In this document: piece by piece, positions 1,363 to 33,117 of the stretch | How positions within the stretch are numbered: position 1 is the stretch's first letter | Layout: each line of letters starts with the position of its first letter | Source of the DNA: a virus | Lineage: Duplodnaviria; Heunggongvirae; Uroviricota; Caudoviricetes | IMG/VR virus record: IMGVR_UViG_2545824709_000011 | Span: 1-33,117 of that record | Strand: one strand, 5' to 3' | Length of the DNA stretch: 33,117 nt | The notes under the pieces: model-generated | Database searches by the model: none | Told to the model about the DNA's origin: nothing | What the model saw: only the letters and a program-made list of their open reading frames with translations | Program-made: the position numbers and the translations under genes

Positions 1363-1506
1363 TTAATTTCGATTATTTTTCCCGGATGGAAAATTCTTAG
1401 AAACCGATCACATACAGCTGCATTTATTAAGGTTATCATCCGTTTCGCTGAAAAACATAACCCATAAAATGCTAGCTGTACCAGGAACCACCTCCTTAGC
1501 CTGTGT

Positions 1507-1534
1507 AATCTCCCTTACACGGGCTTATTTTTTA
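1507..1534. repeat. attR core (ogr-proximal copy of the 28-bp att core repeat)
   Basis: Exact 28-bp match to 32615-32642; its reverse complement matches the P2 att core as I recall it (AAAAAATAAGCCCGTGTAAGGGAGATT). Confidence 0.85.
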
Positions 1535-1596: not shown

Positions 1597-1631
1597 CAAA
1601 AAAGCCCCTCGACTGAGGGGCTTTCTGTTTG
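1597..1631 (-). terminator. Rho-independent terminator downstream of ogr (bidirectional hairpin)
   Basis: A-tract, stem AGCCCCTC / GAGGGGCT with loop GACT, then T-rich stretch; on the minus strand the hairpin is followed by TTTTTT, 4 bp after the ogr stop. Confidence 0.7.
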
Positions 1632-1634
1632 TAA

Positions 1635-1853
1635 TTACATCCACATAATTTGCTGCCCTGATGGCAACGGGTGCGGCCTTACGGCGTGGACTTCTCCCGG
1701 CTTCACGATGTATCGCTGTACCGACTCATAAGTGATGAACGTGGCGCTGCAATTCACGTTCTGGCACTGATGATAACGCTCTTTTGTCGTGTCAGTGATA
1801 TAGCGACTTGTACGCGCATGTGCGGCATGCTGGCATAAAGGACAATGAAACAT
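1635..1853 (-). CDS. ogr: Ogr, zinc-finger late-gene transcription activator
   Basis: 72-aa product MFHCPLCQHAAHARTSRYITDTTKERYHQCQNVNCSATF matches P2 Ogr; internal ATG at 1853 chosen over the 93-aa ORF-track start. Confidence 0.9.
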   Translation of the reverse strand: MFHCPLCQHAAHARTSRYITDTTKERYHQCQNVNCSATFITYESVQRYIVKPGEVHAVRPHPLPSGQQIMWM

Positions 1854-6515: not shown

Positions 6516-7034
6516 TCACAGGCCGATATTGCGGCGGTGTTGCTCCAGCCGGTCGACGCCATTCACCTTCTCAATCATGTTAATGGTGTCGATTTCGACC
6601 AGCTCCTTACCGTCCATCGTCAGCCGGAAATAGGTGCAGACCACGGAGATTTTCGACTCGGTGTCTTCTCCCTGTTTACCCTCGCCGGTGTCGATTTCTT
6701 TCTGACGGCCACGCATGACCACCTCGACGGCCACCGTTTCGCCGGTATCGTCGCGCTGGTAAGAGCCAGCAAAACGAATCGGTACGGCATCCACACCGGT
6801 TGCGGCGTAAAGCTCCCAGATAACCGAATCCGGGAAGCCCCCGAGCGACCACTCCATTGACAGCGCATCGTCATCAAGGCCGAGGTCTACCGGTGCGCTG
6901 CCGTTCATCCCCGCACCGCGATAGTTTTCGAGCTTACGGGTCAGTTTTGGCAGCGTGACGGACTTTGCAACGCCCTGATAGCTGTAGCCGTTCAGAAAGA
7001 CGTTCATTAACTTGAGTTTGCGCGGCATTGCCAT
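6516..7034 (-). CDS. FII: Tail tube protein FII
   Basis: 172-aa ORF; synteny FI-FII-E. Confidence 0.9.
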   Translation of the reverse strand: MAMPRKLKLMNVFLNGYSYQGVAKSVTLPKLTRKLENYRGAGMNGSAPVDLGLDDDALSMEWSLGGFPDSVIWELYAATGVDAVPIRFAGSYQRDDTGETVAVEVVMRGRQKEIDTGEGKQGEDTESKISVVCTYFRLTMDGKELVEIDTINMIEKVNGVDRLEQHRRNIGL

Positions 7035-8567: not shown

Positions 8568-8978
8568 CTACGCCTCCGGCAGTTCAGGCCAGATGACATC
8601 CGGTGCGGTGCTGGTATCTGTTGCCGTCACAGCGTCGATATAATCCAGCACAACGTTAAGTCGGGTAGTTTCTTCTTGCGTCAGTTTGCGCCCGGCCTGC
8701 AGCTTTAACTGAATCACGCTGATATTGGCCATTGCTGCGTCTATCAGCGACTGTTTTTTCTGTTCAGCGTCAGCTACCAGTTCATCATGAGAACGTTCCG
8801 GAGGGAGCGGCGCAGTAAATACCCCGTCTGAATACCCCCAGCCGATTCCGGGATGCTCACTGATATCAGAAATATCAATGAGCTGCTGATTATCCGGCAC
8901 TGTGAATTCAGCCTCGCCATCCCAGACAATGACATTCACAACCATCCCATTTTCAATAACTGCATATGACGCATTCAT
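8568..8978 (-). CDS. Tail fiber assembly protein (gene G position)
   Basis: ORF immediately downstream of H with the TAATG stop/start overlap; start at MNASYAVIENG preferred over the upstream in-H ATG at 9002; length and position fit a tail-fiber chaperone. Confidence 0.75.
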   Translation of the reverse strand: MNASYAVIENGMVVNVIVWDGEAEFTVPDNQQLIDISDISEHPGIGWGYSDGVFTAPLPPERSHDELVADAEQKKQSLIDAAMANISVIQLKLQAGRKLTQEETTRLNVVLDYIDAVTATDTSTAPDVIWPELPEA

Positions 8979-11011
8979 TATGCAAACTCCTCGATAATAC
9001 AAATCCCAGCGGCACCTTTCCCGCCTGTCATACTGGTTCCGCTATAACCGGCATCGTATGCACCACCTCCGCCTGAACCATATGCCTTACCGCTAACGCC
9101 ACCGCCAGCGCCTGCGCGTCCACCGCCACCCCAGTACGATGTTCCGCCTTCACCGCTGACGCTGATATTTCCGGACTGACCGTCGCCTCCATTTCCACCA
9201 GTGATGCGGATATCGCCAGTACTCGGCACACCTCCGTTACCGCCGTTTGTGTTTGTAATTCCCACTTTCCCGCCACCTGCGCCACCAGGAGCAATTAACG
9301 ATGCGAATACGCTATTCCCGCCACTGGTGCCGTTCGTCGCACTAACACCACCGGCCCCACCTGCGCCGATAGTGACTGGATAACTATTCTGTATCGGGGT
9401 CATTATTGAAATTATTGTTCCACCGGCCCCACCGCCAGCACCGAAAAACGTTTCATTATTGGATATAGCCTTGCAGCCGCCCCCTCCGCCACCGCCGCCC
9501 GTTATTGTGACCCTAATCCGTTTTGTTCCTGGCGTCGGGGTGTACGTACCTGATGACGTGAAAACCCGGGTATTCACCAAGCGTCCCACGTATCCACTTG
9601 CATCGCTCAAGCCAAGGTCAGCAGCAGTAGGTTTAATATGTGAACTGTAAATTACATATACAGTTCCATCTGTCAGGCCTGTTGGTTTATTCGCTGTATA
9701 AGTTGGTGATGTATGAATCGTTACGCTGGCGTTACTGGTATAATCCCACTGAATATTAACACCTGTGGCGTAATTACCTATTTCAACATAAACATCATAG
9801 GTATCACCGGATGTATTCACCCATGCAAAATTAGTAAATCCAACCGATGTCCGTCGCCATAACGCACCAGTAAGATCTTTTGGATTTCCATTTCCCGCAC
9901 GAAGAACAAGTTCAGATATACCAGCCTGCATAGGGGAGTTAACATTATATCCAGCACCACCAATCAGACTTATGTAAACCACGGAACTGGCCTGTGGCAT
10001 AGTTACAGTTGCCAGCCTGAACCATCCTGTACCACCACTAAAAGACATGGTTGTTGAATTTGTTGCTCCAATATTGCGCAGGAATAATCTTTTATCAGGA
10101 ATATCCGCGCCGTTCTGATCTTTCTGAAGACGTTTTTCAGCATTGTCATAGGCAGACTTCACCGCTTTCGGTGTTGCGGCCAGCGTTTCAGAAGTGCTAT
10201 TGGTGGCGCTGCTGAGCTGGACAAGGCCTTTTCGCGCTGTGGTCGCGTCCTGTGCGGTATATTTCCCGTTAGCAAGGTCATATGCTGTCTTAACCGCCTT
10301 TGGCGTTGCCGCAAGCGTTTCAGAATCGCTGTTGGTGGCGCTACTGAGCTGGACAAGACCTTTTCGCGCTGTGGTCGCGTCCTGTGCAGTATATTTCCCG
10401 TTAGCAAGGTCATACGCGACCTTTACCGCTTTCGGCGTTGCGGCCAGTGTTTCAGACGTGCTGTTGGTTGCGCTGCTTAACTGAGTAAAGCCTTTTGCGG
10501 TCAGTGATGCATCCGGGTGTCGTCGTGACTGTTCGTGTTCTGAGATTTTGTCATCCACATATTTACGGGTCGCCAGTACCACCGACGGGTCGATTTTCAG
10601 CGTGATGGCTTCGGTATTCGAGACAACTAGAATCATGCGGATAGTCTGGGTACGACCACTGCCTTCCTGCAACTGCGGTTTGTACGTTTCCGGGCAGTTC
10701 GCCACCGCAATGAGTACGCCTTCATCATCATAAAGCCCAATCTCACGGATCCAGAATCCTCCCTCGTTTTCAGGGATAATTTGCTCCGCAATAATCTGGC
10801 TCTGATTGTTAGGGTCAACACTCAGAAGATTCAGCGGTGCAATGCGTTTCTGGTTAATCAGTTTTGTCTGTGCCGGGTCTGGTGTCGGTAATACACCATT
10901 CGCATCACCAACGGCCATTTGCGTCAGATTCAGCTTACTGCCGAGCATCGTCGCGTTAGCCAGTCGTGCTGCGCCCTGATTAGTCAGAATGGCGTAGTAT
11001 TTCACTGTCAT
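8978..11011 (-). CDS. H: Tail fiber protein H
   Basis: 677-aa ORF; N-terminus MTVKYYAILTNQGAARLANA is the conserved P2-type H baseplate-attachment region; internal 44-aa tandem repeats; very glycine-rich C-terminal third. Confidence 0.9.
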   Translation of the reverse strand: MTVKYYAILTNQGAARLANATMLGSKLNLTQMAVGDANGVLPTPDPAQTKLINQKRIAPLNLLSVDPNNQSQIIAEQIIPENEGGFWIREIGLYDDEGVLIAVANCPETYKPQLQEGSGRTQTIRMILVVSNTEAITLKIDPSVVLATRKYVDDKISEHEQSRRHPDASLTAKGFTQLSSATNSTSETLAATPKAVKVAYDLANGKYTAQDATTARKGLVQLSSATNSDSETLAATPKAVKTAYDLANGKYTAQDATTARKGLVQLSSATNSTSETLAATPKAVKSAYDNAEKRLQKDQNGADIPDKRLFLRNIGATNSTTMSFSGGTGWFRLATVTMPQASSVVYISLIGGAGYNVNSPMQAGISELVLRAGNGNPKDLTGALWRRTSVGFTNFAWVNTSGDTYDVYVEIGNYATGVNIQWDYTSNASVTIHTSPTYTANKPTGLTDGTVYVIYSSHIKPTAADLGLSDASGYVGRLVNTRVFTSSGTYTPTPGTKRIRVTITGGGGGGGGCKAISNNETFFGAGGGAGGTIISIMTPIQNSYPVTIGAGGAGGVSATNGTSGGNSVFASLIAPGGAGGGKVGITNTNGGNGGVPSTGDIRITGGNGGDGQSGNISVSGEGGTSYWGGGGRAGAGGGVSGKAYGSGGGGAYDAGYSGTSMTGGKGAAGICIIEEFA
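10161..10500 (-). repeat. Tandem 132-bp coding repeats (about 2.6 copies) inside tail fiber gene H
   Basis: Near-identical units starting about 10161, 10293 and 10425, encoding repeated KGLVQLSSATNS.SETLAATPKAVK.AYDLANGKYTAQDATTAR. Confidence 0.85.
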
Positions 11012-23744: not shown

Positions 23745-24362
23745 TCAAGCAGATAGGCAAAACGTTTCTGTTTGCCCCAAGTGTTCAAACACAGTAATCG
23801 ATGTTACTTTTCCGGCACTTATTTTGTTAAGGAACTTCAATATTTGTTGAGGCTCCTCCATGACTGCTGTTTTCTTGATTATAAATCCCTCAAGATTTTT
23901 CAAGCTGTATCGCTGACTTGAGTTCTCAAGAGCAGCAATCATTGCCGAACTGCGCATATCTCTATGTCCACTAGCTCTACAAACGACAGCATAATTTAAA
24001 TTAAGCTCTACAAAATTTTGCCTTGTCAACTCTGGAAGGTGTTTACATACAAAATGAAATAAAGTCGTAACACCTTCATGTATTTTCAACCTTATATCAT
24101 CCTTTTGTGAACGTCCTTCTTTAAATTCAATGAAGTACAATTTATCTTCATATAAAAATAAAGCATCCGGTGATTTTTCTTTAAACTCACGCTTATAAAC
24201 AGGCGAGCAATTTAACACCGTATCATAGTTAAAGCCCTTCGAATCACAAATAATAAAATTCCGAGCCCCTGCATCATTGTAGCTTAATCCGGTTACATCA
24301 ACCATTGAATCAGGGTATACTTCACACAGTTTTCTAAAAACAAGTTCCTCATTAGAAATCAT
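23745..24362 (-). CDS. Hypothetical 205-aa partner protein of the ATPase (candidate defence effector)
   Basis: ORF overlaps the upstream ATPase gene by 11 nt; AGGAG ribosome-binding site 8 nt upstream; AT-rich; contains a D...E-x-K-like stretch (LFLYEDKLYFIEFKEG) but no motif I can assign with confidence. Confidence 0.6.
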   Translation of the reverse strand: MISNEELVFRKLCEVYPDSMVDVTGLSYNDAGARNFIICDSKGFNYDTVLNCSPVYKREFKEKSPDALFLYEDKLYFIEFKEGRSQKDDIRLKIHEGVTTLFHFVCKHLPELTRQNFVELNLNYAVVCRASGHRDMRSSAMIAALENSSQRYSLKNLEGFIIKKTAVMEEPQQILKFLNKISAGKVTSITVFEHLGQTETFCLSA

Positions 24363-25680
24363 CCAAATACTCCTGATTCAATTCTTTTAATGGTGATGCC
24401 AAAAGATTAATTGCATATGCAACATTATCAGTAATATCAACAAAAGATGTAAACTCTTCCCCAGGGAATCGCTCGCTTATATAGAACCGATTTTCAATCC
24501 CAATTTTATCGCTATAATGTTTAAGAGCATCAATAATATACGGGCTATGTGTTGTAATTATTATATCAACCCCCATAGACACTAACTCACAAATAATCTC
24601 AGCATAGAAAACCTGCCATTTTGGATGTAAGTTCACCTCTGGCTCATCAATAATCAGTAACGAGTTATCTACTGCTGCCCCGCACTTAACAAGCATATCA
24701 AGAATACCTAAAGACTTTATTCCTGACGCAATATTACCCGATGTGACTTTATAGCCTTGCTTCTCTAGAAAAAAATCATTCTTTTCAATATCATAAACCA
24801 CTTCACCACAGAAAGTAGCATTGATTTTGTTAGATATACGCAGTGACTCTTTTAAAAATGAGCCATCATCAAAAATATCCGAATGCACAAATAAATTATA
24901 AACTGAATCGCTTAATTTTATTGATAGATCTTTCACATGCAATGGAACAGTTAGACGTCCTGATTCACCATTACTATCAAATAAAGTTTTAGCAAAACGA
25001 ACCAAATTATGAAATTGCATAATACTTGGAGAGTCAACATAGGTTGCGTCGACATATCCTAAACCATCAGTATAATCAAATTGTGATATACCATCTTTAG
25101 TCCATTTAATATCAATTAACTGACTAACACCATCAACAACTTCCAGAGATGCTTTAACTGGATTTTGATTACCCTTCTGAATAATTTCGCCTCTAAATTC
25201 AGAGTAAAAGGCCTTACGCAGAGCACGGTTGATAGCAGATAGCTCATCATCTGGCTCAAGCATTATATCTCTGATTTTTCTTATATCAGAGAGTACAGAA
25301 TCAGCCATCAATTCTGGAAGAAGCCCTTCCTCAATCAAATTATATAGATAACTCTCTCTCTCAGCCAAAGTTTTAGAGATATCTATTTTTAGAGAGGCAT
25401 AAAACTTTCTTGGATTGAATAACTCTCTAATTTCCGGCGTAGCAGCAATATTAATCCTCCTACGCAGATTAAAATATATTTTCTCTACGATAGATGTAAT
25501 TCTATCCTCTTTGTCTTCTTCTAAATCCTCTTGATAACGAGATATCGCCTTTACCATTGAAAACAATATTTTCCCTACGGTACTCTTCCCCGTATCATTT
25601 TCACCAGTTATGACAGTTAAACCACCAACTGAAACATCAGCTTCTGCAATAGTTCCAAAATTATTAATTTTTATACGCAT
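24352..25680 (-). CDS. ABC/OLD-family (AAA_15/AAA_21-like) ATPase, 442 aa (candidate defence ATPase)
   Basis: Walker A GENDTGKST near the N-terminus; long helical insert; C-terminal Walker B/D-loop LLIIDEPEVNLHP and H-loop IIITTHSP; AT-rich cargo between Q and cos. Confidence 0.7.
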   Translation of the reverse strand: MRIKINNFGTIAEADVSVGGLTVITGENDTGKSTVGKILFSMVKAISRYQEDLEEDKEDRITSIVEKIYFNLRRRINIAATPEIRELFNPRKFYASLKIDISKTLAERESYLYNLIEEGLLPELMADSVLSDIRKIRDIMLEPDDELSAINRALRKAFYSEFRGEIIQKGNQNPVKASLEVVDGVSQLIDIKWTKDGISQFDYTDGLGYVDATYVDSPSIMQFHNLVRFAKTLFDSNGESGRLTVPLHVKDLSIKLSDSVYNLFVHSDIFDDGSFLKESLRISNKINATFCGEVVYDIEKNDFFLEKQGYKVTSGNIASGIKSLGILDMLVKCGAAVDNSLLIIDEPEVNLHPKWQVFYAEIICELVSMGVDIIITTHSPYIIDALKHYSDKIGIENRFYISERFPGEEFTSFVDITDNVAYAINLLASPLKELNQEYLDDF

Positions 25681-31521: not shown

Positions 31522-32535
31522 ATGGCAATCAAAAAACTCGATGATGGTCGATATGAAGTGGACATCCGCCCTACTGGACGTAATGGAAAACGCATCCGTA
31601 GGAAGTTTGATAAGAAAAGCGAAGCTGTCGCTTTCGAGAAATACACGTTGTACAACCACCACAATAAAGAATGGCTATCAAAACCAACAGACAAGCGACG
31701 TCTGTCGGAGCTGACACAGATCTGGTGGGATTTAAAGGGTAAACACGAAGAGCATGGGAAATCTAATCTTGGGAAAATTGAAATCTTCACAAAAATAACG
31801 AATGACCCATGCGCATTTCAAATTACGAAATCGCTTATCAGCCAGTACTGCGCCACCCGAAGAAGTCAGGGTATTAAACCTTCGAGTATCAATCGTGATT
31901 TAACATGTATTAGCGGCATGTTTACAGCCCTGATTGAAGCGGAGTTATTCTTTGGTGAGCACCCTATCAGAGGGACAAAAAGGCTTAAGGAGGAAAAACC
32001 AGACACAGGCTATCTCACGCAGGAAGAAATTGCCTTACTGCTTGCTGCTCTTGACGGCGACAACAAAAAGATTGCGATTCTTTGCCTGAGTACTGGAGCA
32101 CGTTGGGGAGAAGCAGCTCGTTTGAAAGCAGAAAATATCATCCATAACCGCGTCACGTTTGTTAAAACGAAAACAAACAAACCACGCACCGTCCCGATCT
32201 CAGAGGCTGTTGCCAAAATGATCGCGGATAACAAACGAGGTTTTTTATTCCCTGATGCTGATTACCCTCGCTTCAGACGAACAATGAAAGCAATAAAACC
32301 GGATTTGCCAATGGGGCAAGCTACACATGCACTAAGGCACAGCTTTGCCACTCATTTCATGATTAATGGAGGAAGTATTATCACGCTACAACGGATACTA
32401 GGTCACACGCGGATTGAGCAAACTATGGTTTACGCTCATTTTGCGCCAGAGTACCTTCAGGACGCCATTTCTCTTAATCCGCTAAGAGGTGGTACTGAGG
32501 TCGAGAGTGTCCACACAGTGTCCACAGTAGAGTAA
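31522..32535 (+). CDS. int: Tyrosine integrase
   Basis: 337-aa ORF with C-terminal catalytic residues (HALRHSFAT ... LGH ... Y); GGAGGG ribosome-binding site; adjacent to the att core. Confidence 0.9.
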   Translation: MAIKKLDDGRYEVDIRPTGRNGKRIRRKFDKKSEAVAFEKYTLYNHHNKEWLSKPTDKRRLSELTQIWWDLKGKHEEHGKSNLGKIEIFTKITNDPCAFQITKSLISQYCATRRSQGIKPSSINRDLTCISGMFTALIEAELFFGEHPIRGTKRLKEEKPDTGYLTQEEIALLLAALDGDNKKIAILCLSTGARWGEAARLKAENIIHNRVTFVKTKTNKPRTVPISEAVAKMIADNKRGFLFPDADYPRFRRTMKAIKPDLPMGQATHALRHSFATHFMINGGSIITLQRILGHTRIEQTMVYAHFAPEYLQDAISLNPLRGGTEVESVHTVSTVE

Positions 32536-32614
32536 CGTTTAAGGGCTTTCAGTGGTAATTTATGCCGCTCAAACCCGCATTGTACCGTTGAAAGCCCCTA
32601 CTGGTGACACCCTA

Positions 32615-32642
32615 AATCTCCCTTACACGGGCTTATTTTTTA
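32615..32642. repeat. attL core (integrase-proximal copy of the 28-bp att core repeat)
   Basis: Exact 28-bp match to 1507-1534. Confidence 0.85.
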
Positions 32643-32799
32643 TGCATAAGCCCTATCCCTGGTCACCGTCTTCCATTGACCACATCGATAGAATCTCCCT
32701 TCATAGCACGATGCCTTTCACGTAACGGCATCGTGCTCGCACAGGTTCCGGCTAAGCACAACCAGAACGCGCATGTTTGACGCTTACCAAAAAATATTC

Positions 32800-33117
32800 T
32801 CACTCTCCACATTTGAATGTCAGACGAGCGACGCCATGTAATCCTGCACCTTCTGTCTTCAGGTCAACTATCTGCATTTTTTTGCCCTGAGTAACACAGA
32901 AATGGGCTGCATCATTTTTTACTATATTTTCTGCACCAGATATTCTGCCCCTGGCTAAAGAAGCTTCGGCTTCGGTGTAGTATTGGTTATCGAGTTTACG
33001 CTGAATATTACTTTTATATGCAAGACCAAATTTACCGATACTTGTCTCATCATTATGCACAGCACAACCAGACACAATAAAAATACTAATTAATGATATA
33101 GCAGCTATCTTTTTCAT
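32800..33117 (-). CDS. yegR: Host small lipoprotein (105 aa), possibly YegR
   Basis: Signal peptide with lipobox (FIVSGC); outside the prophage; symbol assigned only from recalled synteny with yegQ and the 105-aa length, not from sequence recognition. Confidence 0.45.
   Translation of the reverse strand: MKKIAAISLISIFIVSGCAVHNDETSIGKFGLAYKSNIQRKLDNQYYTEAEASLARGRISGAENIVKNDAAHFCVTQGKKMQIVDLKTEGAGLHGVARLTFKCGE

Follow-up and report, generated by a model that had tools for sequence, protein, structure and literature searches.

How does the recognition sequence of a phage integrase come to lie in bacterial DNA, on the far side of the junction at which the phage ends? The question is raised by a P2-like prophage in a stretch of 33,117 nt (IMG/VR record IMGVR_UViG_2545824709_000011, positions 1–33,117; hereafter the window), in which the DNA just outside attL is a decayed copy of the phage's own Int-binding arm. 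The window opens with yegQ (positions 1–1362) and the sRNA gene cyaR (RyeE; 1445–1530, plus strand; Rfam RF00112, 100.7 bits, E 3e-19). The att core at the cyaR/ogr junction, attR (1507–1534), recurs as the same 28 nt at the int/host junction, attL (32615–32642; seen in the sequence and in a repeat search). The two copies are identical to each other and to the attP core of phage P2 (AF063097; 27-nt identity), and the P2 att core (27/28 nt) makes up the 3′ half of the cyaR terminator.

The ogr-side arm of the prophage is 100% identical to that of P2, and the annotation of AF063097 can be mapped onto it: an IHF binding site (1532–1565; protein_bind), the Int arm-type site or “P arm” (GGTCACGTCCACACATTGACCACATCGA; 1569–1596; protein_bind “Int, P arm”) with its direct repeats GTCCACA and GACCACA, the rho-independent terminator of ogr and the F operon (1601–1624, minus strand; fold of −19.8 kcal/mol, then a U-tract), and ogr itself (1635–1853, minus strand). 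At the opposite end of the prophage lie int (31522–32535, plus strand; 337 aa, from the ORF list and the P2 annotation), the Int arm-type site of the int-side arm (32501–32527; GTGTCCACA twice; protein_bind “Int, P′ arm”), and the Cox binding region (32525–32598). Past the attL core, 157 nt of flank lead to yegR (32800–33117, minus strand), which encodes a 105-aa lipoprotein (PF27694) and at whose start codon the window stops.

Both 28-nt att cores are followed by CTGGTCAC, a spacer of 7 nt, and CATTGACCACATCGA, an ungapped block with 24 of 30 positions matching. The longer element sits at 32674–32688 and 1582–1596, the sole matches in the window at up to two mismatches (0.10 expected), and CTGGTCAC precedes it in both copies (32659–32666 and 1567–1574). 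A repeat search of the window recovers this similarity as a direct repeat of 49 nt (1562–1610 versus 32654–32702; ungapped, 71% identity) alongside the core repeat (1507–1541 versus 32615–32649; 91% identity). The arm repeat is offset from the core repeat by 16 nt: core and block are separated by 16 nt on the host side and by 32 nt on the phage side. Flank and arm, when aligned locally, score 38, as compared with 14.0 ± 2.3 (maximum 31) for 5000 dinucleotide shuffles, none of which reaches 38. An earlier interpretation of this DNA from its letters alone (the sequence-only reading) had pointed to the longer motif, to a similar stretch ahead of it, and to homology between flank and phage arm beyond the 28-bp core; all three are borne out, the flank being a degenerate, collinear copy of the ogr-side P2 arm.

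In AF063097, the stretch that corresponds to the shared block is annotated as the Int “P arm” binding site. P2-type integrases recognize the arm consensus tgTGGaCa, repeated in direct orientation to either side of the core (Nilsson et al. 2011, PMC3448106). Whereas the phage arm has two such half-sites, GTCCACA and GACCACA, the host flank carries on the same strand a degenerate GTCTTCC (4/7) and an intact GACCACA. This fossil Int arm-type site extends over 32659–32688 and consists of CTGGTCAC, the degenerate half-site, and, inside the 15-mer, the intact half-site TGACCACA. In MAFFT alignments, the core-proximal part of the fossil arm (32643–32658) substitutes for the 32-nt IHF segment but is shorter by 16 nt; in terms of the full 34-nt IHF segment, the common host allele is without 16 nt. 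A longer allele, GTGCATAAACCATAGAGACGGATTGATCCCAGGTGACCGTCTTCCATTGACCACATCGA (strains 405 and 2022N21-074), is diverged, retains GGATTgAT, and is collinear with the whole P arm save for a single 4-nt gap.

The relic is like the ogr-side arm of P2 attP in its collinearity, which holds from the core through the Int site, in sharing the 8-mer and the 15-mer exactly, and in having one intact half-site. Unlike that arm, it reads GTCTTCC for GTCCACA, is short of IHF sequence by 16 nt (4 nt in the long allele), and stops before the ogr terminator and ogr. Outside the 15-mer, it is only ~60–65% identical to P2 arms. A functional P2-type Int site has two direct repeats ~11 bp apart and an IHF site between core and arm repeats at attP spacing; in the host flank, the first repeat is broken and no IHF site stands at that spacing. 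The fossil is presumably now functionally inert.

Between the relic and yegR, the flank contains a hairpin with an 11-bp stem (32705–32737; arms 32705–32715 and 32727–32737), 62 nt downstream of the yegR stop on the minus strand. It folds at −20.6 kcal/mol on the plus strand and −24.6 kcal/mol on the minus strand (z ~ −5), so that the hairpin of the sequence-only reading is real, although its arms lie 2 nt to the right of the 32703–32735 given there. The same reading had likened it to the ogr terminator. We rejected this homology, as the two have no sequence similarity and the flank hairpin has no U-tract; the likeness is one of position. A terminator scan found no T-run after the hairpin on either strand and called no terminator-like site. 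Substitutions in the stem of S88 and strain 8600 are uncompensated and therefore give no evidence of selection on the structure. A promoter scan found no sigma-70-like promoter overlapping the relic. The decamer AATCTCCCTT (32692–32701; AATCCTCCTT in K-12-type alleles), which lies between relic and hairpin and is an exact copy of the left end of the core, is possibly due to chance or a trace of nested integration. The junction of core and flank is straddled by an 8-bp inverted repeat, GGGCTTAT...ATAAGCCC (32630–32654), which attP does not have and whose folding is weak (z −1.6).

The flank (32643–32830) is found in 5417 of 5426 complete E. coli genomes. The reconstructed unoccupied junction, cyaR–core–flank, is contiguous in ~4218 of these genomes and interrupted in ~1200, and in E24377A, which has an unoccupied site, the core directly adjoins an identical flank. 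Since nearly all genomes possess the flank, those with unoccupied sites included, it is the native B′ arm of attB locI and no strain-specific scar. The 30-mer of the relic is identical in 2687 genomes, differs by one mismatch in 2359, and by at least two in 368, a polymorphism of about the same level as that of the surrounding flank. The flankless elppa10 was considered as an ancestral state and rejected, as it carries a prophage with a distal deletion. In B2-type strains such as S88 (L095, ~540–710), an AT-rich insertion of ~170 bp is present in the yegR 3′ flank, between CCAAAAAAT and ATTCTCACTCTCC.

E. coli K-12 holds a cryptic P2 remnant (attR-ogrK-D′/yegZ) at locI. The order in K-12 is core, P2 arm, ogrK, D′ fragment, a partial second core (TACACGGGCTTATTTTTTT), and then the flank at 94.7% identity; the ogrK-D′ remnant is a younger layer on top of the fossil flank. 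The two leftovers are alike in their location at the cyaR 3′ end, in orientation, and in being a P2-type right end beside an intact core. In contrast to the relic, the K-12 remnant is recent, nearly identical to P2, strain-specific, retains ogr and part of D, and ends in a second core copy, whereas the relic, situated distal to it, is fixed across E. coli, far more decayed, and devoid of phage genes.

The host context of the flank was examined in 80 species loci fetched via YegQ, 77 of which have the cyaR core; the non-coli Escherichia among them amount to only two species, which limits the dating of the insertion described below. In 46 of the 77 enterobacterial loci, including those of Klebsiella, Kosakonia, Enterobacter, Citrobacter, and Escherichia sp. 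E1V33, yegS starts 74–144 nt after the core. Neither yegR nor the E. coli-type flank is present in any of the 80 species loci, and the B′ flank is restricted to E. coli. The motif TTGACCACATCGA, searched in the 160 nt next to the core with a tolerance of 3 mismatches, is missing from all 46 loci in which yegS directly follows the core and occurs in 8 of the 31 loci with insertions or prophages. In clear prophages it stands 49–50 nt from the core, behind a conserved TGAAATAAAAGGATTTATTT segment; P2-like prophages of Citrobacter, Scandinavium, and unclassified Enterobacteriaceae share a conserved arm site, of which those of Trabulsiella have a slightly diverged form.

Comparison of E. coli with E1V33 reveals that the flank is the start of a 794-bp insertion (L002, 2500–3293), which begins exactly at the 3′ edge of the core and beyond which homology to E1V33 resumes at ...CTTTTTATCCTCCGACTTTCATCCTGTTCTGA. 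Its composition is atypical, with a GC content of 30–43% versus 50–55% in yegQ and yegS. From left to right it is composed of the decayed ogr-side arm, the hairpin, yegR, an AT-rich spacer, and a decayed int-side arm and core. This last element was recognized in the final 58 nt (CCATTGCAAGCTCCTGGTGGTAACCACTGAATCCTCCATACTTGAACTGACTTTTTA), which match the P2 int-side arm plus core (window 32585–32642) at 39 of 58 positions in an alignment that ends exactly where homology to the yegS upstream region of E1V33 restarts. Its score of 20 exceeds those of 10000 shuffles (7.4 ± 1.3, maximum 18), and among 13782 natural tiles scores of at least 17 occur only in true core copies. The anatomy of the insertion matches that of an integrated element, namely core, ogr-side arm, contents, int-side arm, and core, with the arms and the distal core decayed. 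As in a prophage remnant, the insertion lies at a known att site between duplicated cores (left intact, right decayed) and is missing from the same site in related taxa (46 of 77 loci, E1V33 included).

We read the insertion as a species-wide “ghost” of an element once integrated by a P2-type integrase. The attL flank would then be the ordinary right flank (B′) of E. coli locI and itself an old, decayed ogr-side arm of a P2-type attP, which we regard as the probable explanation. In the history that we propose, a P2-type-integrase element would have entered the cyaR terminator in an E. coli ancestor and duplicated the core, presumably in a single ancient event. Nearly all DNA between the arms would subsequently have been lost or replaced, leaving ~0.8 kb with core, ogr-side arm, hairpin, yegR, AT-rich spacer, int-side arm, second core, and the yegS promoter. 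The left core would have been kept intact because it forms the 3′ half of the cyaR terminator, and it would for that reason still serve as attB. The present prophage would then have recombined with this left core, bringing its own int-side arm beside the fossil arm.

Several observations count against reading the insertion as such a ghost. The perfect 15-mer is better kept than uniform decay predicts, and the IHF-proximal part of the left relic is by itself only marginally significant (p ~0.04). The int-side relic shows no significant similarity past its 58 nt (p = 0.4 for the next 85 nt). The extra core-like decamer at 32692–32701 belongs here as well, as does the gene content: the sole gene of the insertion is yegR, and no phage or mobility gene is recognizable in it. 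A Pfam scan returned only DUF333 and IF5A-like_N, both far below curated cut-offs, and gave no link to phages.

In terms of phage counterparts, a BLAST search of the flank against 50,697 phage records hit only two, both of which contain host flank; the P2 arms in the phage records are missed because they are too short and too diverged. Likewise, YegR matched the phage collection (tblastn) only in records containing host flank, and the yegR upstream region and the right-end relic (BLAST) found nothing in phages beyond the host-flank record ON470606. Two “phage” records, ON470606.1 and AY639599.1, run past attL into the E. coli yegR region, so that their prophage boundaries are overrun. For yegR itself, no phage ancestry is apparent. 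The YegR family PF27694 is nearly confined to E. coli and Shigella. In other enterics, homologs with 47–83% identity are situated at unrelated chromosomal loci or within an island rich in IS elements, and the DNA similarity of distant homologs is limited to the ORF; on these grounds, a phage cargo module was rejected as the common context of the distant homologs. A YegR of 87% identity in P0018 occupies the same locus, where yegQ and yegS are fragmented, and is hence uninformative on outgroups. Because phage homologs are absent and the 47–83% homologs lie in unrelated chromosomal loci, the yegR cargo could have arrived apart from the ancient element.

Four other explanations of the flank were weighed against descent from an ancient integration. 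Chance similarity, or convergence on a common DNA motif, gains something from an unrelated segment of the window (6692–6728, plus strand; GATTTCTTTCTGACGGCCACGCATGACCACCTCGAC) that scores 40 against the P arm with lenient gap costs, aligning about as well as the flank does (33 of 40 identities with the ogr-side arm at 1558–1597, two gaps). Since an unrelated tile can reach 40, the argument for homology is carried by the exact 15-mer and 8-mer and by their collinear position beside the core. These features, in the same orientation in both copies and adjoining the shared core, together with the 0.10 15-mer matches expected, the failure of all 5000 shuffles to reach the score, and the independent att-like relic at the other end of the insertion, make chance a very improbable cause. 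The segment itself lies in a 172-aa tail gene (6516–7034, minus strand) and is either a chance match or an internal Int-like site. An equally slight probability attaches to the idea, close to that of the sequence-only reading, that this strain or its recent lineage already held an older P2-like right end of the K-12 ogrK type, or tandem prophages that decayed. The relic does follow the core directly in attR-arm orientation, and recent remnants are known at the site in K-12, E. albertii, and Enterobacter sp. UNJFSC 003. The idea is refuted by the identical flank at unoccupied sites and in genomes of all kinds; moreover, the K-12 remnant arm is nearly identical to P2, which the relic outside its 15-mer is far from being. 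Of the earlier proposal, descent from a previous P2-type integration stands as the best reading, whereas a K-12-like remnant peculiar to this strain is unsupported, as 5417 of 5426 genomes have the flank. Nor do E24377A and other unoccupied sites support tandem prophages that decayed in this lineage, and the ogrK remnant is no equivalent, as K-12 carries it upstream of, and besides, the same flank. The sequence-only reading had held that its case would fail if the flank occurred at unoccupied sites and lacked extended homology to the P2 right end; the flank does occur there, but its homology reaches the end of the Int site.

The opposite direction of transfer deserves mention, as a phage that uses an RNA gene for its integration has in its own DNA a copy of that gene's 3′ end. 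A P2 ancestor might have captured the cyaR 3′ end together with E. coli flank, in which the arm site then evolved, and the collinearity of attP and attB over the core plus the arm patch would follow. We consider this quite unlikely. The flank is an insertion peculiar to E. coli, which neither Escherichia sp. E1V33 nor the other genera possess, whereas P2-like prophages of several genera share a conserved arm site, and the Int consensus recurs on the other phage arm. It is the E. coli copy that is defective: one of its half-sites is broken and its IHF segment is shortened, as a decaying copy would be expected to show. For these reasons, transfer from phage to host is the direction that we infer. 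Finally, the patch may have been kept because it is functional, the half-site TGACCACA, ~35–45 bp from the core, binding the N-terminal domain of P2 Int. Such a patch, which would be compatible with a fossil origin, would add to the strong preference for locI or change attL architecture or excision. The 15-mer is perfect between phage and host in surroundings of ~60% identity, CCGTCTTCCATTGACCACATCGATAGAAT is invariant in seven E. coli sequences (six loci plus the window; five distinct alleles), and the half-site fits the published consensus at 7 of 8 positions (PMC3448106). Nevertheless, a retained function is unlikely: in the published description, attB consists of nothing but the core and only attP has arm sites (PMC3448106), the arm sites of P2 work as direct-repeat pairs, of which one member is destroyed here next to a truncated IHF segment, and about half of the E. 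coli genomes have at least one mismatch in the 30-mer, like the surrounding flank. It is a doubtful proposition that locI is not a simple attB and would have inherited a working Int half-site and part of an IHF segment from the ghost prophage. If it were true, the vestige would steer P2 Int to locI rather than to secondary sites, or it would influence excision and the architecture of attL.

The relation of this locus to known systems can be summarized as follows. That cyaR is a P2-type insertion site, with the K-12 “ogr-D′” residing there, is already known (PMC3032704). In the literature searched, outside of which the older P2 literature lies, we found no description of a species-wide fossil arm or of yegR in an att-bracketed ghost. 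As in the simple attB of lambda-type heterobivalent tyrosine integrases, the functional part of locI is a core (27 nt) shared with attP; unlike such an attB, locI has a vestigial arm-type site alongside, which may or may not be inert. The insertion resembles degraded att-flanked islands at tRNA and sRNA genes in having one intact and one decayed core, low GC content, a lineage-specific distribution, and a position at the 3′ end of an sRNA gene, and it differs from the usual ones in having a single small non-phage gene, yegR, and no integrase. Comparable small islands with a second att core copy, of ~1.9 kb between cyaR and yegS, are present in Enterobacter pasteurii (L072, 4006–5940) and E. 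nematophilus (L061); the former encodes proteins of 329 and 201 aa, the shorter of which looks hydrophobic by eye.

The fossil arm reveals no new mechanism and is ordinary prophage-remnant biology. On our reading, however, sites scored as unoccupied (“-” for strain Crooks in PMC3032704) would already contain the fixed fossil that an earlier P2-type integration left behind, with yegR, an orphan lipoprotein gene, inside the fossil insertion. The finding bears on prophage-boundary calling, as two phage records run over into the flank, on the design of attB substrates for P2 recombination experiments, as E. coli flanks carry a vestigial Int site, and on how the cyaR locus evolved as a hot spot of repeated integration. 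Independent relics of P2-type arms are visible in the MAG OH_SBB_50 (L060, 4036–4240), where a decayed arm has TTCAGGCCACCTGTACGCACTGACCATCTCGATTGAAAGC plus GTCCAGTCCAC near the yegS side, and in E. albertii (L006, 4034–4080), where the arm is truncated within the first half-site. With relics or islands in L060, L075, L072, and L061, the cyaR 3′ end is evidently a recurrent graveyard of P2-type integrations.

The core itself varies among species. E. coli has ACACGGG, as does the P2 attP core, and Escherichia sp. E1V33, E. albertii, and most Citrobacter have ACGCAGG. The E. coli sequence is consistent with a phage-supplied 3′ half of the cyaR terminator; contrary to this notion, some Kluyvera loci in which cyaR and yegS are directly adjacent also carry the P2-type core.

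Two further features of the prophage were observed. At the position of the P2 old/tin hot spot (23745–25680, minus strand), two overlapping cargo ORFs encode a 442-aa ABC-type ATPase (Pfam AAA_15/AAA_21; best PADLOC matches HEC-02A at 1.8e-33 and PD-T4-4_A at 1.7e-30) and a 205-aa partner with no match; the pair is a candidate two-gene anti-phage system. A 677-aa ORF (8978–11011), presumably the tail-fibre gene in view of the tail-fibre assembly gene immediately downstream of it (8568–9002; Caudo_TAP match), contains three tandem units of 132 nt at 10139–10534 (100%, 87%, and 66% identity).
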